Under the pieces are notes generated by a model. It was not told the DNA's origin. It ran no database searches and worked only from the letters and a program-made list of their open reading frames with translations. A stretch of 64,000 bases of DNA. It comes from Spirochaetales bacterium. Its GTDB lineage: Bacteria > Spirochaetota > GWE2-31-10 > MWDO01. Position 1 is the stretch's first letter. Each line of letters begins with the position of its first letter. A program made the translations under genes and the position numbers. Shown piece by piece: positions 46,152-53,862 of the stretch. The stretch is from assembly GCA_017540815.1 (NCBI GenBank), contig JAFYAI010000144.1:685-64684 (forward strand), given 5' to 3'.

Positions 46152-47618
46152 ATGCAAATACTACCCGCATGTCGCGATGCGGTCAAATATGCTGAGTCAG
46201 GCGAATACAAAGTCCTGCCTGTCAGCTGCGAGATCCTGTCGGACTTCATCACACCGATCGAAACGATCAAAATTCTTAAAAATCTCTCATCTCACTGCTA
46301 TATGCTAGAGTCAGCAGCTGCCGATGAACAATGGGGACGATACACATTTATCGGATATAATCCCAAATTGTCAGTGACATGTTCTGACGGGCTTATGAAA
46401 GTAGGCGATGAGACATATCGCACGGACAATCCTTCGGATATTCTGCGAAAGATACTCAGCGAATATAAGAGTCCGAGACTTGACTATCTGCCGCCTTTCA
46501 CAGGAGGTCTTGTCGGCTACTTCGCTTACGACTATCTCGGCTACAGTGAGCCAAGCGTTCGATGCAAAGTCGATGATACAGAAGCATTCAAAGATGTGGA
46601 TCTAATGCTTTTCGACAAGGTCATTGCATTCGACAATGTGCGTCAGAAGATAATACTTATCGTCAATATGAAGCTGGATAATCCGCAAGCCGAATATGAC
46701 AGAGCAGTCAGCGAACTGCAAAATCTTGTCAATACGCTTCGTCAGGGACAGAGAAACACCGAACCAAGCGGACACTGGATTGGTGAGATTGAACCGCTGT
46801 TCAATAAGGAAGAATACTGTGCAATGGTAGAGCGTGCCAAGCATTATATTAAGGAAGGAGATATATTCCAGATAGTGCTGTCCAATCGCCTTTCTGCTCC
46901 GTTCAAAGGCAGCCTGCTCAATACCTACCGTGTTCTGAGGACGCTCAATCCTTCGCCGTATATGTTCTACTTCTCAGGAACTGATGTTGAAGTCGCCGGT
47001 GCATCACCTGAGACTCTCGTCAAACTTGAGAACGGCATTCTGCACACATTCCCGCTGGCAGGCACCCGTCCCAGAGGCAGGAATGAGGAAGAAGACAAAC
47101 GCCTCATCGCAGAACTGCTCGCCGATGAGAAAGAACTTGCCGAGCACAATATGCTTGTCGATCTCGGCAGGAATGACCTCGGCAAGATCAGCCGATTCGG
47201 TTCGGTTGAAGTGGAGAAGCTCCACAGCATCGAGAAATTCTCACATGTTATGCACATAGGCTCTACTGTCCGCGGCGAGATTCGCGAAGATAAGGATGCA
47301 CTTGATGCTATCGAAGCGGTGCTGCCTGCCGGAACATTGTCCGGTGCACCTAAGATAAGAGCGTGCCAGCTCATCGGCGAACTTGAGAATAACAAACGCG
47401 GTATATACGGTGGTGCAATCGGTTATATCGACTTCACAGGCAATATGGACACATGCATCGCTATCCGCATCGTCTATAAGAAGAACGGCAAAGTCTTCGT
47501 CCGCAGCGGTGCAGGCATCGTTGCTGATTCCATTCCTGAGAAAGAATACGAAGAATGTATCAACAAAGCCAAAGCTGTCGTTAAAGCACTGGAGCTGGCA
47601 CAGGAGGAGAACTTATGA
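46152..47618 (+). CDS. trpE: Anthranilate synthase component I
   Basis: MLESA, GDIFQIVLS, NPSPYM, ASPETL, PLAGTRPRG, EHNMLVDLGRND, GTLSGAPK. Confidence 0.95.
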   Translation: MQILPACRDAVKYAESGEYKVLPVSCEILSDFITPIETIKILKNLSSHCYMLESAAADEQWGRYTFIGYNPKLSVTCSDGLMKVGDETYRTDNPSDILRKILSEYKSPRLDYLPPFTGGLVGYFAYDYLGYSEPSVRCKVDDTEAFKDVDLMLFDKVIAFDNVRQKIILIVNMKLDNPQAEYDRAVSELQNLVNTLRQGQRNTEPSGHWIGEIEPLFNKEEYCAMVERAKHYIKEGDIFQIVLSNRLSAPFKGSLLNTYRVLRTLNPSPYMFYFSGTDVEVAGASPETLVKLENGILHTFPLAGTRPRGRNEEEDKRLIAELLADEKELAEHNMLVDLGRNDLGKISRFGSVEVEKLHSIEKFSHVMHIGSTVRGEIREDKDALDAIEAVLPAGTLSGAPKIRACQLIGELENNKRGIYGGAIGYIDFTGNMDTCIAIRIVYKKNGKVFVRSGAGIVADSIPEKEYEECINKAKAVVKALELAQEENL

Positions 47619-48190
47619 CACTGCTGATCGATAACTATGACAGTTTCTCTTACAATCTCTATCAATATATAGGCGAGCTCGATCCGAGTATGCGTGTCAT
47701 TCGCAACGATGAGATGACAGTCGATCAGATTAGAGATCTTCATCCTGACCGCATTATCATTTCTCCGGGACCGGGCAGACCTGAGAATGCAGGCATCATT
47801 ATAGATGTCATTCGGCAGCTCGGAGACAGAATACCGATACTCGGCGTATGCCTCGGCCATCAGGCAATATGTGCCGCATTCGGAGCGACAGTGACTTATG
47901 CCAAACAGCTTATGCACGGCAAACAGTCACTTGTAACATTTTCGGCAAAATGTCCGCTTTTCCGAGATGTCCCCGGCAATGCCAAAGTCGCCAGATACCA
48001 CTCACTGGCAGCAGATCCTGCAACTATGCCGGAGTGCCTTATTGTAACTGCCGTGACTGATGACGGCGAGATTATGGCTGTGCAGCACAAAGACTATCCG
48101 ATATACGGCGTGCAGTTTCATCCGGAGTCGATCATGACCCCGGATGGCAAAACGATGATTAAGAATTTCATTAATGGGATAGAGGTTTAA
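47615..48190 (+). CDS. trpG: Anthranilate synthase component II (glutamine amidotransferase)
   Basis: IDNYDSFSYNL, SPGPG, GVCLGHQ, QFHPES. Confidence 0.95.
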   Translation: MTLLIDNYDSFSYNLYQYIGELDPSMRVIRNDEMTVDQIRDLHPDRIIISPGPGRPENAGIIIDVIRQLGDRIPILGVCLGHQAICAAFGATVTYAKQLMHGKQSLVTFSAKCPLFRDVPGNAKVARYHSLAADPATMPECLIVTAVTDDGEIMAVQHKDYPIYGVQFHPESIMTPDGKTMIKNFINGIEV

Positions 48191-48200
48191 GAGAGAAATA

Positions 48201-48298
48201 ATAGGTTCGATAAATCGAACCCGTACATAAGGATGTGATTTATCACACCCATTACAAACATATTATAAAAAGACCTCTCCGCTACGGTCGAGGTGACA
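48201..48298. repeat. Cluster of REP-like palindromes between trpG and trpD
   Basis: GGTTCGAT-aa-ATCGAACC; TGTGAT-tt-ATCACA; AGACCTCTCCGCTACGGTCGAGGTGACA (right half of the 27061 element). Confidence 0.55.
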
Positions 48299-48323
48299 GT
48301 ATTATATATCTAAGGAGCAATAT

Positions 48324-49340
48324 ATGATAAAGGAAGCAATCGTAAAGATCGTAAATAAAGAAGACCTCAGTTACGATGAGGCATATACAGTTATGAATGA
48401 GATCATGAGCGGAGAGACCTCCCCTACTCAGAATGCAGCATTCTTAGCAGCACTGTCTACCAAAAGTGCAAGAGCCGAGACGACAGACGAGATAGCCGGC
48501 TGTGCAGCAGCAATGCGGGACCACGCAACGAAAGTCGATACAGGCATGGACATCTTTGAGATAGTCGGCACGGGCGGAGACAATGCTCAGAGTTTCAACA
48601 TCTCCACCACATCGGCACTTGTCGCTGCAGCAGGCGGTATGAAAGTCGCCAAACACGGCAACCGGGCAGCGTCAAGCAAATGCGGCACGGCGGATTGTTT
48701 GGAAGCACTCGGCGTAAACATCGACCAGTCGCCCGAAAAATGCGTTGAACTGCTTAACGAAGTCGGGATGTGTTTCTTCTTCGCACAAAAGTACCACACA
48801 TCTATGAAATATGTCGGAGCGATCCGCAAGGAGCTTGGCTTTAGAACAGTATTCAACATTCTCGGACCTCTGACAAACCCCGGCTCACCGACGATGCAGC
48901 TGCTCGGAGTTTACGACGATTACCTCGTTGAGCCGCTGGCGAATGTTCTGATCAGTCTCGGCGTTAAACGCGGCATGGTTGTCTATGGAATGGATAAACT
49001 TGACGAGATCAGCATGAGCAGTCCGACGAAGATCTGTGAGTTCAAAGACGGCTGGTATCGCACTTCGATTATTACACCGGAAGAATTCGGGCTTGCACGC
49101 TGTACCAAAGATGATCTCAAAGGCGGTACTCCGGCTGAGAATGCTCAGATTACATTGGACATCCTGTCCGGTAAAAAAGGCTGCAAGCGTGATGCTGTTC
49201 TCCTTAACGCCGGAGCAGCATTATACATCGGCGGCAAAGCTGACTCTATGGCAGACGGCATTCGCCTCGCCGGTGAGATTATCGACAGCGGAGCAGCGAT
49301 GGAGACGCTGAAGAAATTTATTAATGTTAGTAATAGGTAA
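48324..49340 (+). CDS. trpD: Anthranilate phosphoribosyltransferase
   Basis: [35 protein letters not shown]. Confidence 0.96.
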
Positions 49341-49363
49341 TTCATAATTCATAATTCATAATT
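49338..49363 (+). repeat. TAATTCA heptamer tandem repeat
   Basis: TAATTCA x3 plus TAATT, starting at the trpD stop codon. Confidence 0.8.
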
Positions 49364-49401
49364 AAAAATGAGATTTTGCAGTAGCAAAATCTCATTTTTT
49401 T
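49364..49401 (+). terminator. trpEGD terminator
   Basis: AAAAATGAGATTTTGC-agta-GCAAAATCTCATTTTT; nearly identical to the hairpin at 25611. Confidence 0.8.
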
Positions 49402-49409
49402 GTTTTTGC

Positions 49410-49438
49410 TTGACAAATTTAATTTTATCATATATCAT
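49410..49438 (+). promoter_or_regulatory. sigma70 promoter of the inserted cassette
   Basis: TTGACA-17 bp-TATCAT. Confidence 0.65.
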
Positions 49439-49444
49439 TGTTTT

Positions 49445-49830
49445 AATTACAAGAATTATTTGGCAAAGAGAGTTCTCTGCCTCAATGCTAAATAAAGAAA
49501 AATTCAGATCAATAACTCATTTATTTGAAGGGAATCCGTTGGAAAATCCTGTATCTTAAATGGGGTAGGAAGGGTTTTCTTATTGGTCTGAGATTTTTCT
49601 GCCCGCAGAGACATTTAGTGATACGGGATTTTTGTAATTAAATTCAGACTAATGGAGGTTCTTCAAAATGAGAACAAGTATTTCTTCTGCTTAAATTTTC
49701 ACAACTTTATAAAACAACAATTTCCAAATGTATTGATAGTCATAAAAATATGACTATGTAGTATTATGCCGTAATTATGGCAGACAAGTCACTGTGTTTC
49801 CGTGGCAAAAATTTAACAATTAAGAGGTTT
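49445..49830 (+). ncRNA. Candidate structured cis-regulatory leader RNA containing mini-ORF MRTSISSA (49668-49694)
   Basis: Multiple long, competing complementarities (see findings); GGAGG RBS before the mini-ORF. Confidence 0.5.
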
Positions 49831-49833
49831 TAA

Positions 49834-50175
49834 ATGAGAAACTCAATGAAAATTTTATCTATTATTATGGTAATGATTATGATGATGTTGGCAGCATGTG
49901 CTCAGGATAATACATCTAATAATGGCAGCAGTAATTCCGGCAGTACTTCAACTGGTGTTGTCGGAAGATGGAAAGATACTGATAATCTTGTGTATGAATT
50001 TACATCAGGTAATATCTATATGGATGGTTCTGTATACGGAAGATATTATGGTAACGATGCTGAAGGGGAATTATCGGTAAATGATATATGGTTTTATTAT
50101 ACAGTCTCAAGCAACAGTATGACTTGGACTAAGAAAAATGATTCCTCAGTCAAAGAATATCTTACTCGAATGTAA
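49834..50175 (+). CDS. Small lipoprotein
   Basis: Lipobox LAAC, S/N/G-rich tether, then a VVGRW beta-rich domain. Confidence 0.8.
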   Translation: MRNSMKILSIIMVMIMMMLAACAQDNTSNNGSSNSGSTSTGVVGRWKDTDNLVYEFTSGNIYMDGSVYGRYYGNDAEGELSVNDIWFYYTVSSNSMTWTKKNDSSVKEYLTRM

Positions 50176-50192
50176 CCACAAGTAAAAAAAAT

Positions 50193-50232
50193 AACCCGAG
50201 ATTTTTTGACGAAAATCTCGGATTATTTTTTT
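50193..50232 (+). terminator. Terminator after lipoprotein
   Basis: CCCGAGATTTT-ttgacg-AAAATCTCGGG followed by a T-run. Confidence 0.75.
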
Positions 50233-50234
50233 CC

Positions 50235-50263
50235 TTGATTTCATTCCCAATTTATTGTATAAT
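50235..50263 (+). promoter_or_regulatory. sigma70 promoter of the TA-trpC unit
   Basis: TTGATT-17 bp-TATAAT. Confidence 0.7.
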
Positions 50264-50299
50264 TAACATAAAGCTATGTTATTCGCAAGGAGCTATAAA

Positions 50300-50536
50300 A
50301 TGTCTTACGAAACAGTTGTTGAGCAAGTCAGAACTTTGCCGGAAGATTGTCTTGAAGATCTTTCAAAATATATGCAGTTTCTTCTATATCAATACAGTTT
50401 AAATAAAATGAATAATCTCACTGAAACAGACGAAGAATTTAACGCAAAAATGCAAAATGGTTATGATGATATGCTCGCTGGACGAGTTAAACCGCTGAAT
50501 AAGGCTTTCACTGATATAAGAAGGCGGTTCTCATGA
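50300..50536 (+). CDS. Putative type II antitoxin
   Basis: 78 aa, QVRTLPEDCLEDL..YMQFL and GYDDMLAGRVKP; overlaps the toxin start (ATGA). Confidence 0.7.
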   Translation: MSYETVVEQVRTLPEDCLEDLSKYMQFLLYQYSLNKMNNLTETDEEFNAKMQNGYDDMLAGRVKPLNKAFTDIRRRFS

Positions 50537-50847
50537 AACATTATGAGATTGTAATCTCAGAACAGGCAGAAGAAGATATTGCAAAAATATATTCTTATAT
50601 ATATTATGATTTAGGTTCAGAAATTAATGCCAATGCAGTTCTTGACAGACTTTATGCCGCTATAGAACAGTTGAGTTTTGTAGGAGAAAGTTATCACTTA
50701 TACCCTAATGAACCGTGGCGATCACGCGGCATTCACTATTTCTCAGTAAATAATTATTCTGTTTTCTATACCACAAAAGAATCGATTATAACTGTAATCC
50801 ATATAGCGTATGGACGACGAGATTTAGATAAAATGTTAGAGGATTAA
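50533..50847 (+). CDS. RelE/ParE family toxin
   Basis: YEIVISEQAEEDIAKIYSYI...NNYSVFY...VIHIAYGRRDL. Confidence 0.85.
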   Translation: MKHYEIVISEQAEEDIAKIYSYIYYDLGSEINANAVLDRLYAAIEQLSFVGESYHLYPNEPWRSRGIHYFSVNNYSVFYTTKESIITVIHIAYGRRDLDKMLED

Positions 50848-50850
50848 ACT

Positions 50851-51627
50851 ATGAACATACTCGAAGAGATAGCCGCCTATACGAAGCAGCGTATAGCAAT
50901 GGCAAAGCAAAGCATACCTGTGGAAGAAATACGACAGAGAGCTTATAATATACCCAAAGGAGAGTTCGCTTTTGAGAAAGCTCTGCGTAAGCCTGACATC
51001 GCATTTATCTGCGAATGTAAGAAAGCATCTCCGTCGAAAGGACTTATCGAACCTGACTTCCGGTATCTCGATATTGCCAAATCTTATGAAGCAGCCGGAG
51101 CGGATTGTATCTCGGTGCTGACCGAGCCTAAGTGGTTCTTGGGCGATGACCGCTATCTGCAGGAGATCGTCTCTGCGGTGCATATCCCGTGTCTGCGAAA
51201 AGACTTCACCGTTGATGAATATATGATCTATCAGGCGAAACTGCTTGGGGCATCTGCCGTTTTGCTGATTTGTTCCATTCTTAGTGAGAATGACATCAGG
51301 CGGTATATCGGCATCTGCGATGAGCTTGGTCTGTCAGCTCTTGTCGAAGCTCACGATGAAGATGAAGTGAAACTTGCTCTGAATGTCGGTGCGAGGATTA
51401 TCGGTGTCAATAACCGCAATCTGAAGAATTTCTCAGTTGATACAAACAACAGCCTTAGGCTGCGAAGCCTTGTTCCTGATGATATTATATTCGTCTCGGA
51501 AAGCGGCGTTAAAACAGCGGAAGATATTCGCATTCTGCGTGATAATGGCGTTAATGCCGTGTTGATTGGTGAAACTCTTATGCGAGCAGCGGATAAAAAG
51601 GAGAAATTGAGGGAGCTGAAAGGATAA
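50851..51627 (+). CDS. trpC: Indole-3-glycerol phosphate synthase
   Basis: ICECKKASPSKG, ISVLTE, LRKDF, IGVNNRNL, VSESG. Confidence 0.96.
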   Translation: MNILEEIAAYTKQRIAMAKQSIPVEEIRQRAYNIPKGEFAFEKALRKPDIAFICECKKASPSKGLIEPDFRYLDIAKSYEAAGADCISVLTEPKWFLGDDRYLQEIVSAVHIPCLRKDFTVDEYMIYQAKLLGASAVLLICSILSENDIRRYIGICDELGLSALVEAHDEDEVKLALNVGARIIGVNNRNLKNFSVDTNNSLRLRSLVPDDIIFVSESGVKTAEDIRILRDNGVNAVLIGETLMRAADKKEKLRELKG

Positions 51628-51636
51628 TGGGTAATT

Positions 51637-51782
51637 GTGGGGCTGCCGCCCCACGCCCCGTTCGCCGCTTTCAGCGGCGTTTCCCAAGAGGGCGGAACAA
51701 CCAACTTTTCGTAGCCGTAGGTTTTTCCGCCCTCTTGACTCCCACCATTTCCTTGGAAACGCTGGGGCAAGCCCCAGCCCCC
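51637..51782. repeat. GC-rich multi-hairpin element (MITE/REP-like)
   Basis: Terminal GGGGC..GCCCCA..CCCC direct-repeat hairpins; internal perfect 13-bp stem CAAGAGGGCGGAA/TTCCGCCCTCTTG. Confidence 0.65.
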
Positions 51783-51800
51783 ATTTGTGATACTTTGTGA

Positions 51801-51844
51801 AAAAGCAGGTCGGATTTTGCGTTGCAAAATCCAACCTGCTTTTT
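51801..51844. terminator. Bidirectional terminator between trpC and the RNase III-like gene
   Basis: AAAAGCAGGTCGGATTTTGC-gtt-GCAAAATCCAACCTGCTTTT. Confidence 0.75.
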
Positions 51845-52907
51845 ATGTTTCAATTTTAAGAATAAATTCAATCATATCCAACGCAGCTAAGCGTTTTGCT
51901 TCGGCTTTAGAATAGGCTTCTCCTATTCCGGCTTGCCTATAACCATCTATATCTTTATACTCATCAATAAAACATTCACATCGCCAAAGTTGATGCCCAT
52001 CATCGTGAGATTTTATAAAACAATTCAAATTGGGCTTTGATATAAATTTTTTCAAATAAAGAGTATTTAGGGCTTGAACTGCGGTTTTTTCTGTAGCATT
52101 TCCTATAATTTGTCTAATCTGATAACCCTGCAAATAATCCAATGCTTTTTTTGCCGCATCCATTTTTGCTGCTGTTTCAGTTTTTCCAGAACCATCTCTT
52201 GAAGTTGAATACCATGAATTATTTAAGTAGAGCGAAACATTGCATCTGAATATTCCGTCATTATTTTTATTAACAAATGAGAATTTAGGTTCTCTAATAT
52301 CTAACTCATAGCACTTATCATAAAGCATATCGATGAAATTTTCATCAAAGTCTAATATTTCCCACATTAATTTACAAGACTTTTCGATAACATCCCAATT
52401 CCATTCATTTTTAGAAGATGAATAAGAATATTTTATTGAAGAAGCAACAGCAATCGCACCAATAATTGCTTCAAATAAATCACAGCGGACTTTTTCGTTT
52501 TTCCACACTTCGTTATTTTTATCACTCTTACCTAATAGTAGATACCTATCTAAATTTAGCACGTCAATACAATGAGCCAATGCAGATCTATTCACATATT
52601 TAGCTCGGATTCTAGTTAGTTCAGATTCGTTTTTTTCTGAATAAAAAAAGTCATCTTTATATGAATTTGGAAATGTACTGTAAGAATGCCATAACCAATC
52701 TGTCATAATTGTATTGACGAGTTGATCACCATAAAATTCAAGTTCTTCATTACTCTTATATTCTTCATTTTCTGCAGCAAAAGATTTGCGAGTAAATGCC
52801 TGAATTAATAATTTTTTGTAATTACCAAACCTATACCCAATTTTCTCTTCAATTTCCGATTGATGTTCCAATAAATATTGAACATCTTCTTTTTCATTAA
52901 TGTTCAT
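51843..52907 (-). CDS. Ribonuclease III-like protein with two dsRBD-like domains
   Basis: IEEKIGYRF, QAFTRKS, signature NEELEFYGD, DLFEAIIGAI; two dsRBD ends (GSGKTETAAKMDAAKKAL, GEAYSKAEAKRLAALDM); GGAGG RBS before ATG 52907. Confidence 0.85.
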   Translation of the reverse strand: MNINEKEDVQYLLEHQSEIEEKIGYRFGNYKKLLIQAFTRKSFAAENEEYKSNEELEFYGDQLVNTIMTDWLWHSYSTFPNSYKDDFFYSEKNESELTRIRAKYVNRSALAHCIDVLNLDRYLLLGKSDKNNEVWKNEKVRCDLFEAIIGAIAVASSIKYSYSSSKNEWNWDVIEKSCKLMWEILDFDENFIDMLYDKCYELDIREPKFSFVNKNNDGIFRCNVSLYLNNSWYSTSRDGSGKTETAAKMDAAKKALDYLQGYQIRQIIGNATEKTAVQALNTLYLKKFISKPNLNCFIKSHDDGHQLWRCECFIDEYKDIDGYRQAGIGEAYSKAEAKRLAALDMIEFILKIET

Positions 52908-53105
52908 TATGAACCTCCATAGATATATATTTCTTGGAGGCACTACTGCACAGTGTTCCTATATGTGAGAATTATAATAACACTTGGCTTTGATCCAGAT
53001 GCATTAAAAAGAAAATAATGTGAATGTTCTTCAGCACAAGAAACAATTCATTTATAGTCATTCTAAATAACTGATTTCAAATGAAGTGCCTTCATTATGA
53101 TTATA

Positions 53106-53134
53106 ATCATAGTGTATTCTTTATTGTTTGTCAA
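53106..53134 (-). promoter_or_regulatory. sigma70 promoter of the RNase III-like gene
   Basis: TTGACA-17 bp-TATGAT on the minus strand. Confidence 0.65.
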
Positions 53135-53193
53135 GATTTTTCTTTATTATTATTATTTTGCGAAAACCTCGCTGTTTTTCCACAACTTTTTTA

Positions 53194-53222
53194 TAGACAA
53201 AAATCATTATTTAATGTATAAT
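53194..53222 (+). promoter_or_regulatory. sigma70 promoter of trpFBA
   Basis: TAGACA-17 bp-TATAAT. Confidence 0.7.
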
Positions 53223-53253
53223 ATAAATCAATCTAGTGTCAGTGGTGAGGCAG

Positions 53254-53862
53254 ATGACCAAAATGAAATTATGCGGCATAAGCCGTGTGCAGGATGCTGA
53301 AACTGCCAACGATATAATGCCGGATTATGTCGGATTTGTATTTTGGAGCAGGAGTCATCGCTGCATAGACATTGAGACGGCAAAACTGCTGAGACAAACG
53401 CTAAGACCTGATATAATGACTGTCGGCGTATTCGTCAATGAAAAGGCTGATATGATCGCCAAGTTGTATCGCGATGGGCTAATAAATATGGCTCAGCTGC
53501 ACGGCAATGAGGATGAGGATTATATCAAGTCACTTCGCAGAATGGCGGATATTCCGATTATAAAGGCATTCCGCATTCGGAGCAGGGCTGACTTGGATGC
53601 GGCACAGTGCAGCACTGCAGACTATATCCTGCTTGACGCAGGCATGGGTGATGGAGTGACTTTTGACTGGGAGTGGCTTAAAAACTTTGACAGACCTTAC
53701 ATTCTCGCAGGCGGATTGGACTGTCAAAATGTGACGGAAGCGATAAATCGACTGCACCCGTTCGGTGTGGATGTAAGCAGCGGCATCGAGACTGCCTGGA
53801 TAAAAGACAAAGATAAAATGCTCACATTTGCAGCTGCTGTAAGAGCTGCGGATAAAGGATAG
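53254..53862 (+). CDS. trpF: Phosphoribosylanthranilate isomerase
   Basis: KMKLCGI, VGVFVN, QLHGNE, LAGGL, GVDVSSGIET. Confidence 0.94.
   Translation: MTKMKLCGISRVQDAETANDIMPDYVGFVFWSRSHRCIDIETAKLLRQTLRPDIMTVGVFVNEKADMIAKLYRDGLINMAQLHGNEDEDYIKSLRRMADIPIIKAFRIRSRADLDAAQCSTADYILLDAGMGDGVTFDWEWLKNFDRPYILAGGLDCQNVTEAINRLHPFGVDVSSGIETAWIKDKDKMLTFAAAVRAADKG

Follow-up and report, generated by a model that had tools for sequence, protein, structure and literature searches.

What is the leader of about 390 nucleotides (nt) that stands at 49445-49830, directly in front of a small lipoprotein gene, in the 64,000-nt stretch of a Spirochaetales bacterium analysed here (assembly GCA_017540815.1, contig JAFYAI010000144.1, positions 685 to 64,684; hereafter the window, whose numbering is used throughout)? 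A sequence-only reading of this stretch had proposed a new RNA switch, in which competing long helices gate an eight-codon open reading frame (the mini-ORF) ahead of the lipoprotein. Our analysis answers that the region belongs to a real, new and lineage-restricted family of structured leaders with good evidence for bistability, whose mechanism and signal we infer. At this locus the unit extends from 49400 to about 49710 and consists of a sigma-70-type promoter, a structured leader of about 200 nt and the eight-codon mini-ORF with its own Shine-Dalgarno sequence. With moderate confidence we read it as a lineage-specific portable cassette of a promoter, a bistable leader and a short upstream ORF (uORF), which would gate translation initiation.

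The family was recognized first of all by its copies. A blastn search with 49400-49840 against the own assembly, a check that the sequence-only reading had itself proposed, returned many diverged copies at 68-81% identity over query positions 1 to about 300, that is, from the promoter through the mini-ORF. Iterated nhmmer gave 31 matches in this genome, 28 of them near full length, and a covariance model restricted to the core (R1; 145 positions and 39 pairs, built on 26 copies) found 28 copies in the same 3.07-Mb genome. A degenerate pattern matched 19 loci on metagenome contigs, among which 13 were true members (66-121 bits); four of these 13 were orthologous to copies of this genome (84-98% identity) and the others were without close counterpart. 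The element was retained at an orthologous locus with 84% identity. In the sheep-gut run X7, one contig covered 49257-49825 with 11 differences, and those listed fall outside 49447-49677. Contigs of four metagenome DNA runs over 48800-51200 were fragmentary, and none of them showed a junction removing the cassette.

Beyond this lineage the searches returned little. No credible copy was found by R1 in 19 other genomes of the class, which are the same set as the order (one marginal match, E = 0.009, 31.6 bits), nor did it find any in a sample of 150 further genomes of the phylum, which were searched with stricter filters and only 21 candidates scored per genome. Searching 60 relatives with the leader by blastn gave short chance matches only. 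When the degenerate pattern was applied to one genome per species, seven single matches appeared in unrelated taxa; they were treated as chance, as none was confirmed by R1 at E <= 0.01. Viral contigs (searched with the pattern) and plasmids and phages (searched with blastn) gave no match. The sequence-only reading had recognized no riboswitch known to it, and this agrees with Rfam 15, which gave 0 matches at gathering thresholds over the whole window. With E allowed up to 10, 16 matches were obtained on 49300-49900, all at 11-21 bits and far below the thresholds; 13 of them fall at 49330-49480, in the terminator and promoter region before the leader, and the other three inside the leader (RT-17 at 49703-49787, GmglnB1_5p_UTR at 49532-49612 and NPPA-AS1_3 at 49489-49562). 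A literature search, at the level of titles and abstracts, found no description of this element.

The copies are spread over 23 contigs, the nearest pairs being about 9-11 kb apart, and they face genes in a regular way. In 27 of 29 copies a same-strand ATG ORF of at least 70 codons begins 28-355 nt past the core. Of the two exceptions, L040 has one doubtful ORF, and L037 has its first ORF at 603 nt. L037 (G000:C159:18849-18986) is probably a decaying copy: it is without promoter, P1 and segment A (see the list below), but the core's 3' half remains, as does a mini-ORF (MADSFLL). Judged by eye, 22 of the 29 downstream ORFs begin with a signal peptide or lipobox. Pfam searches on 23 downstream proteins assigned Peptidase_C14 to three, CsgG/LpoB to four (one as LpoB/FlgO) and Flg_new to two, and further found Big_3, GYF_2, RES/HEPN, bPH/SHOCT and dynamin domains, while 10 proteins had no family. 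Because these domains are unrelated and the promoter is conserved in front of them, the copies look like a reused or mobile promoter cassette. The lipoprotein is incidental, one of about 29 unrelated genes preceded by the cassette.

Conservation in the family sets in about 10 nt before the -35 element and fades about 10-30 nt past the mini-ORF stop. The -35 and -10 elements are conserved, CTTGACAAA and TATATCAT in the promoter region are kept across 28 copies, and a T-rich stretch lies just 5' of the promoter. Both the promoter and the hairpin at 49456-49495 that the sequence-only reading had named were found, the latter as P1. The three hairpins that it had placed past the mini-ORF are present in the sequence, and they lie outside the conserved element. 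The parts of the cassette, all on the plus strand, are as follows.

49410-49438, plus strand: promoter, with -35 TTGACA at 49410-49415, a 17-nt spacer and -10 TATCAT at 49433-49438 (11 of 12 consensus matches)
49444-49455, plus strand: 5' strand of helix P0, UAAUUACAAGAA, from the predicted transcript 5' end; pairs with 49629-49640
49457-49494, plus strand: P1 hairpin, predicted for every one of the 35 copies tested (z < -2 in 34)
49496-49513, plus strand: segment A, the 5' strand of the long-range helix P2, with copy-specific sequence
49515-49522, plus strand: near-invariant block, consensus GUCUCAUU, here AACUCAUU, with two alternative partners (P3 or anti-start)
49530-49550, plus strand: P4 hairpin, whose outer GGGA:UCCU overlaps rod helix 2a; inner UCC:GGA
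49543-49555, plus strand: 5' strand of rod helix 2a, AAAAUCCUGUAUC; partner 49620-49632
49558-49562, plus strand: 5' strand of rod helix 2c, AAAUG; partner 49612-49616
49563-49568, plus strand: 5' strand of rod helix 2b, GGGUAG; partner 49599-49604
49582-49601, plus strand: segment B, AUUGGUCUGAGAUUUUUCUG, the partner common to A and A', in the apical loop of the rod
49599-49632, plus strand: 3' strands of the rod, namely 2b at 49599-49604, 2c at 49612-49616 and 2a at 49620-49632
49602-49627, plus strand: P5 hairpin, CCCG at 49602-49605 with CGGG at 49624-49627
49629-49640, plus strand: 3' strand of P0, UUUUUGUAAUUA, which includes the U-run following P5
49640-49653, plus strand: segment A', AAAUUCAGACUAAU, which repeats A immediately ahead of the Shine-Dalgarno sequence and offers B an alternative partner
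49654-49658, plus strand: Shine-Dalgarno sequence GGAGG of the mini-ORF, its GGAG invariant in the 28-copy alignment
49658-49675, plus strand: P6, a small hairpin of GUUCUU with GAGAAC that holds the AUG at its loop/stem edge; mean pair probability 0.29-0.35 over 28 copies
49668-49694, plus strand: mini-ORF MRTSISSA followed by TAA, ATG at 49668, with GGAGG upstream

The plus strand of 49445-49840 folds with a minimum free energy (MFE) of -101.6 kcal/mol (z = -5.70), which 0 of 100 dinucleotide shuffles equalled, and the minus strand of the same region gave z = -2.21. For 18 sampled copies the mean z with mononucleotide shuffles was -4.32 for the sense versus -3.48 for the antisense strand, with the sense strand more negative in 14 of 18. 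The MFE fold pairs 49516-49542 with 49649-49672, 49543-49555 with 49620-49632, and 49563-49569 with 49598-49604. This is the rod of about 155 nt described in the sequence-only reading; its inner helices 2a, 2b and 2c covary in the family, while its outermost helix is conserved only as a 7-bp core, GUCUCAUU with AAUGAGA.

Single-sequence folds and averaged pair probabilities of 28 copies converged on two sets of helices. Set I, or fold I, is a cloverleaf-like four-way junction of P0, P1, P2 and P5 with linkers of 0-2 nt, in which P2 is formed by A with B and encloses P4 and P3 (CUCAUU with AAAUGGGG). Set II, or fold II, is the rod of helices 2a, 2c and 2b. The CCCG of P5 is common to rod helix 2b and its CGGG to rod helix 2a, and since the rod likewise shares the GGGG and CCC runs with P3 and the outer part of P4, it excludes all these helices; it also uses CUG at the base of P2. 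The near-invariant block has two possible partners, AAAUGGGG at 49559-49566, giving P3, and AAUGAGA at the mini-ORF start (49666-49672), giving the anti-start helix.

Both sets carry compensatory changes, so that the competing helices proposed from the single sequence were borne out by the homologs, and strongly so for two folds that share nucleotides. The counts were made on a model-based alignment of 39 sequences (38 distinct); L030 (with a 50-nt insertion), L037 (5'-truncated) and L043 (partial) were left out of some of them. For fold I, 79.2% of cells were standard-paired and 31 of 39 pairs had changed on both sides; the covariation score was 0.472 versus a shuffled mean of 0.251, none of 500 shuffles reached it, and a control with slid partners gave at most 0.187. 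For fold II, 88.8% of cells were standard-paired and 20 of 22 pairs had changed on both sides, with a score of 0.433 versus 0.265, again with 0 of 500 shuffles reaching it and a slid-partner maximum of 0.132. Since the copies are related, the slid controls are a fairer yardstick than the shuffle counts. An alignment of 29 sequences gave the same picture for both folds, and RNAalifold on an unfitted MAFFT alignment called helices 2a and 2b.

The individual helices behaved similarly. In P0, 85.1% of cells were paired and seven of 12 pairs had changed on both sides (e.g. CG 7, UA 7 in one, and CG 9, UA 6, UG 3 in another), and its cognate duplex was more stable than non-cognate ones (-8.3 versus -5.0 kcal/mol). 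As P0 would be the 5'-terminal helix, its covariation fits a transcript 5' end near 49444. P1 scored 0.509 versus 0.246 for shuffled alignments, and 13 of its 14 pairs had changed on both sides; all seven pairs of the distal P2 helix and all seven pairs of P4 had changed in this way as well (67.8% and 74.6% of cells paired for P4). P5 was paired in 86.8% of cells with four of five pairs changed on both sides, and helix 2a in 89.7% with 10 of 11. Helices 2c and 2b were paired in 86.8% and 88.6% of cells, respectively, and one 2b pair occurs as GC in 18, AU in 12 and GU in six sequences. P3 was paired in 90.8% of cells with mostly one-sided changes, and the covariation of P6 is uninformative because its sequence is conserved. 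Where the G at the 3' end of CGGG had changed to A, the partner C had changed to U in P5 in four sequences and in 2a in two, which indicates that both helices were tracked. Furthermore, G-U cells outnumbered A-C cells by 155 to 56 in fold I and by 71 to eight in fold II. This excess points to selection on the sense RNA, as had been suspected from the many G-U pairs of the single sequence.

One strand of the leader has more than one partner. Segment B (49582-49601) is complementary both to A (49496-49513) and to A' (49640-49653), and all three vary between copies yet match within each copy. This was examined by an alignment-free comparison of duplex energies in 35 copies. This genome supplied 25 of them and metagenomes 10, after four problem copies had been set aside together with three near-identical orthologues. 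The cognate A:B duplex had a mean energy of -16.4 kcal/mol versus -6.7 (standard deviation 2.8) for non-cognate combinations, and the cognate segment was the best partner in 32 of 35 copies. For A':B the values were -13.2 versus -5.6 kcal/mol (standard deviation 2.4), with 21 of 35. The control duplex A:A' showed no such preference (cognate -3.25 versus non-cognate -3.09 kcal/mol, standard deviation 2.06; best partner in one of 35). B therefore has two maintained and competing partners, one on each side of the rod, and the claim that one strand has three competing partners was confirmed by the coordinates and by these cognate duplex energies. A and A' were most alike within their own copy in 24 of 35 cases. 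A target-site duplication could explain this likeness; however, it is insufficient for the whole pattern, since the internal complementary segment B follows both A and A'.

The mini-ORF was surveyed in 42 copies, 29 from this genome and 13 from metagenomes. A Shine-Dalgarno sequence, an ATG and an ORF of 6-9 codons are kept in 36 of 42, so the mini-ORF MRTSISSA pointed out from the single sequence is conserved in the family; it has exactly eight codons in 27 copies and ends with TAA in 34, TAG in one and TGA in one. Codons 1-3 read Met-Arg-Thr (Met-Gly-Thr in two copies), codons 4-8 are variable, the spacing from the Shine-Dalgarno sequence to the AUG is 4-11 nt, and four copies have an in-frame ATG 3 nt upstream. 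In three diverged copies the same Shine-Dalgarno sequence and ATG open a long signal-peptide ORF (two caspase-like, one lipoprotein), and in three of 42 the Shine-Dalgarno sequence or the ATG is missing. The Met-Arg-Thr codons also pair with GUCUCAUU and with GUUCUU. In two copies the block and the start codon region have changed together, GUCCCAUU occurring with AAUGGGA and CCUCAUUG with CAAUGAGG. None of the three outcomes that the sequence-only reading had named as refuting was encountered: the element matches no Rfam family, its homologs covary and keep the mini-ORF, and the predicted transcript 5' end lies well before 49700.

The energetics of the two folds were predicted by imposing the pairs of set I or set II in 21 copies having a mini-ORF. 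The mean constrained ensemble energy was -73.4 kcal/mol for fold I and -74.4 kcal/mol for fold II, and fold II was lower in 10 of 21, so that the two folds are predicted to be near-isoenergetic. The predicted probability that the AUG is unpaired was 0.51 in fold I versus 0.21 in fold II (Wilcoxon p = 1.3e-5, n = 21, a value that overstates the case as the copies are related). This agrees with the earlier statement that the ATG is buried in the rod. For the window copy the two folds were about even (0.53 versus 0.47) when the transcript was cut at the U-run, and the rod reached 0.92 in the full leader with the mini-ORF region.

On comparative grounds, the existence of the family, the direction in which its copies face, two sets of helices that exclude each other, the sense-strand selection and the conservation of the mini-ORF can be regarded as established. 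Beyond this we infer, from the predicted folds, that the RNA passes between the two states in vivo, with initiation blocked in fold II. The working of the cassette might then be as follows. In one gut spirochaete it has come to precede, by spreading, about 29 unrelated genes, most of them for lipoproteins and secreted proteins. It would be transcribed from its own promoter into a leader that takes one of two folds. In the cloverleaf, A', the Shine-Dalgarno sequence and the AUG of the mini-ORF would be left largely free and the start would be open. In the rod, the GUCUCAUU block would be freed to pair with the start codon region AAUGAGA, and B would be released to pair with A', which abuts the Shine-Dalgarno sequence, so that the start would be hidden. 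The gated Shine-Dalgarno sequence and AUG would belong to the mini-ORF in most copies and to the main signal-peptide ORF in the three diverged copies; as the main ORF itself starts at that AUG there, it can be argued that the output is translation initiation. How mini-ORF translation would be passed on to genes 28-355 nt away is a guess, namely by protection from Rho-dependent polarity or from decay, and generic coupling is favoured because conservation ends soon after the mini-ORF stop. The common conserved core suggests that all copies respond to the same factor, either a protein or a small molecule. Of the inputs that had been suggested (ligand, temperature, antisense), none can be named.

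Several points weigh against this reading. Because the family is confined to one lineage, a recent selfish spread is conceivable. The alignments used for fold I were fitted to fold I by the covariance model, and the copies are paralogues and hence not independent, so the shuffle counts are not probabilities. P3 and the anti-start helix covary only weakly, their sequences being conserved; for the anti-start helix 84.7% of cells were paired with one or two sequences changed on both sides per pair, and its non-cognate duplex (-12.4 kcal/mol) nearly equals the cognate one (-14.0 kcal/mol). The Shine-Dalgarno sequence was unpaired with a probability of 0.27 in fold I versus 0.17 in fold II, which is not a significant difference (p = 0.08). 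All fold energies are predicted, and the forced folds of single copies differ by up to tens of kcal/mol, partly because the constraints were transferred through the alignment. P2 and the rod share only 3 nt and might coexist as a long pseudoknot, in which case the alternation might be that of the rod versus P5, outer P4 and P3, plus A against A'. Finally, the 60 nt past the mini-ORF are rich in A and T, and C (13.7%) exceeds G (11.1%) only slightly, so that a Rho entry site is not specifically supported.

The same helices might instead serve transcription attenuation, which the sequence-only reading had also left in play. P5 with the U-run (49602-49634) would then be an intrinsic terminator, and rod helices 2a and 2b the antiterminator that takes both halves of the P5 stem; the signal would determine whether RNA polymerase continues into the mini-ORF and the gene. 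At least five U follow P5 in 27 of 39 copies, the shared CCCG and CGGG show compensatory changes in both helices, and transcripts cut at the U-run favour fold I with P5 (mean 0.55 versus 0.17 for 2a). However, the U-run is itself a covarying strand of P0, whose formation needs 7 nt beyond the U-run to be transcribed, and copies with only three U still keep the P0 complementarity. P5 is also weak for a terminator (mean dG -5.8 kcal/mol, <= -8 in only four of 39 copies, loops of about 12-18 nt), and a terminator scan left it unflagged, although it flagged the 16-bp terminators nearby. As the Shine-Dalgarno sequence and mini-ORF are moreover conserved downstream, we consider attenuation unlikely. 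A trans-acting small RNA (sRNA) of about 190 nt (49444 to about 49636), using its copy-specific B or A as a seed, e.g. on the A' of its own mRNA, would share the same end. The promoter, the compact fold and the terminal U-run do resemble an sRNA gene, and A, B and A' are copy-specific; but conservation runs on through A', the Shine-Dalgarno sequence and the mini-ORF, P0 requires sequence past the U-run, and P5 is weak as a terminator. This appears to us the most improbable of the explanations considered.

If both folds need not be functional, the cassette could be static, with a strong promoter, a tightly folded leader that stabilizes the 5' end and an early ribosome-loading ORF, which together would serve high and stable expression of surface-protein genes, the second fold being a folding intermediate or an accident of G and C runs. 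A 5' end paired in the covarying helix P0, the compact four-way junction, a cargo of mostly abundant envelope proteins and the lack of any identified ligand-like pocket of conserved unpaired nucleotides would all suit such a cassette. With regard to the pocket, the conserved blocks are all explicable by double pairing roles. Against a static fold stand the pairing and two-sided changes of the rod, which is incompatible with P5 and outer P4, and the copy-specific A', which tracks A and B and for which a static fold offers no role; we rate it slightly lower than attenuation. Rather improbable, in turn, is a selfish or mobile repeat of the miniature inverted-repeat transposable element (MITE) type, in which the hairpins would be terminal inverted repeats without a regulatory function of their own. 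About 29 copies in a 3-Mb genome of one lineage, a locus that resembles an insertion into the trp operon and the presence of other repeat modules in the genome are what such a repeat would leave. The inverted repeat P0 is internal to the conserved unit from promoter to mini-ORF. Against such a repeat, the orientation is fixed relative to the downstream ORF, the copies are old and diverged with helices kept by compensatory changes, and the G-U excess indicates selection on one RNA strand. The promoter, Shine-Dalgarno sequence and ATG are conserved, the searches of plasmids, phages and viral contigs were negative, and an orthologous locus at 84% identity retains the element.

The portable cassette with a bistable leader therefore remains our preferred reading, and a bolder form of it may be stated as a rather doubtful possibility, namely that the leader is a new class of ligand- or factor-sensing switch, in which private A/B/A' address triplets let about 29 unrelated genes for surface and accessory functions belong to one regulon without cross-talk. 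If this bolder form were true, a regulon would have been built by the spread of a riboregulator and not of a transcription-factor site. If the preferred reading holds, the cassette would be a clear natural example of a portable post-transcriptional controller, as about 29 unrelated genes share a whole unit of promoter, RNA switch and uORF, whereas regulons are usually thought to grow through gain of protein-binding sites. The paralogous copies would offer unusually rich covariation for two exclusive folds and for the exchange of A:B and A':B, and the leader RNA would be a ready-made model for bistable folding and strand displacement. The cassette would also mark probably co-regulated envelope and accessory genes of an uncultured gut spirochaete, such as those for secreted caspase-like proteases, CsgG/LpoB-like proteins and small lipoproteins.

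The setting of the window copy is the trp operon (46152-53862), with trpE, trpG and trpD, then trpC, and then trpF. The end of TrpD, at 49340, precedes a 16-bp terminator (49364-49399) and the cassette; 3' of the element come the lipoprotein gene with its terminator, then an antitoxin-like ORF next to a gene for a ParE toxin, and trpC.

49834-50175, plus strand: lipoprotein gene (113 amino acids, no Pfam family), followed by a terminator at 50196-50221

This lipoprotein is one of four paralogues located behind cassette copies. Three foreign-looking units split the operon: the cassette with the lipoprotein (49400-50230), the antitoxin-like ORF with the ParE gene (50276-50847), and a 366-amino-acid RNase III paralogue with a double-stranded RNA-binding domain on the opposite strand (51843-52943). 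As TrpC of the family relatives is only 37-38% identical, synteny is uninformative on whether the cassette is an insertion. The host assembly has 3.07 Mb in 160 contigs (93% complete), and the genome encodes four FlaA genes, Rho and CsrA; FlaA gave no match in any of 14 control genomes, which agrees with a spirochaete as host. The single CsrA gene (G000:C37:48876-49031) lies about 870 bp from a cassette copy (C37:48004) on the opposite strand, which may be coincidence.

Other repeated sequences were seen around the copies. The terminators at 49364-49399 and 50196-50221 have a near-identical stem, GAGATTTTGC-loop-GCAAAATCTC. The corresponding palindrome GATTTTGY-N3-6-RCAAAATC has 120 genome-wide matches counted over both strands, that is, about 60 sites, and as only eight of the 120 lie just upstream of cassettes, the terminator was rejected as a cassette part. 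A tandem ATTCATAA repeat occupies 49340-49366, between the trpD stop and its terminator, and CATAAT-type repeats ahead of terminators at other loci gave 67 matches. In the bin 49340-49366 the summed contig depth was 540-985 in four metagenome runs versus about 3-40 nearby, which means that the ATTCATAA-type motif is very common in those metagenomes. Many copies share a G-free motif of the form UUUCAAUCAACAAUUU within 10-30 nt past the mini-ORF stop (CACAACTTTATAAAACAACAATTT at 49699-49722 of the window); it could serve ribosome standby, Rho entry or protein binding. A second repeated module was found behind seven cassettes (L019, L024, L025, L030, L034, L018 and L032), 330-450 nt past the cassette start. 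It combines an A-rich run with a GTATAC-centred palindrome of about 20 bp (e.g. AAATGGAGTATACTCCATTT) and then a hairpin with a TTGACA loop (GTTCTTGACAGAAC), may be an operator plus a second promoter, and occurs also away from cassettes (40 and 20 matches over both strands). A small hairpin module, GGGTTCGATAAATCGAACCC, occurs in L019 and L032 about 320 nt past the cassette start and in L085, with eight genome-wide matches over both strands, two of them behind cassettes.

Some known classes were set aside when the element was compared with them. In a leader-peptide attenuator of the trp, his or pyr type, the leader ORF overlaps or comes before the first segment of the alternative hairpins, so that the position of the ribosome selects the fold; the mini-ORF (49668-49694) lies 3' of all competing helices (49444-49655), and no regulatory codons are conserved here, only Met-Arg-Thr being kept. 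An integron attC site was likewise rejected, as the copies are dispersed without tandem arrays and the G-U excess points to RNA; no search was made for an integrase. Correia, ERIC, BOX and RUP elements are multi-copy intergenic repeats that form long RNA hairpins in mRNAs and may carry promoters; they are symmetric inverted repeats inserted in both orientations. In contrast, the cassette keeps one orientation (27 of 29 copies face a same-strand ORF) and has an asymmetric, G-U-rich fold with a promoter at one end and a Shine-Dalgarno sequence and mini-ORF at the other.

Closer parallels are found among regulatory leaders. E. coli tnaC-tnaA and Salmonella mgtL-mgtA are controlled via a short uORF and alternative RNA folds. 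The cassette resembles them in its long 5' leader with mutually exclusive helices and a very short ORF with a Shine-Dalgarno sequence, followed by a variable, unstructured spacer before the gene. Unlike in these leaders, the mini-ORF here lies 3' of all competing helices and would itself be gated, its codons are conserved only as Met-Arg-Thr, leader and promoter travel together in a cassette present about 29 times, and a role of Rho is a guess. As in translational riboswitches, one fold of the bistable leader would hide the start, and conservation peaks at the nucleotides with dual pairing; in contrast to them, no aptamer-like pocket was identified, Rfam gave no match, the family is found in one lineage, and the unit includes its own promoter.

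With respect to the way of spreading, the upstream homology box of Borrelia erp/ospE/ospF genes is a DNA-level promoter/operator region common to paralogous genes on prophage plasmids, and is not known to have an RNA structure or a uORF. Likened by description alone, the two cases agree in that many spirochaete lipoprotein genes share a conserved 5' flank including the promoter, and they differ in that the cassette has RNA structure and a uORF and precedes unrelated genes. Putative mobile promoters (PMC3575422) are highly similar upstream regions before non-homologous genes within one genome. The cassette resembles them as an upstream region reused before unrelated genes of one genome, and differs from them as a unit of about 310 nt with a covarying RNA and a mini-ORF, whose copies have diverged to 68-80% identity with the structure kept. 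By analogy, the element thus appears to behave like uORF-containing bistable leaders and translational riboswitch platforms, and to spread like reused promoters.

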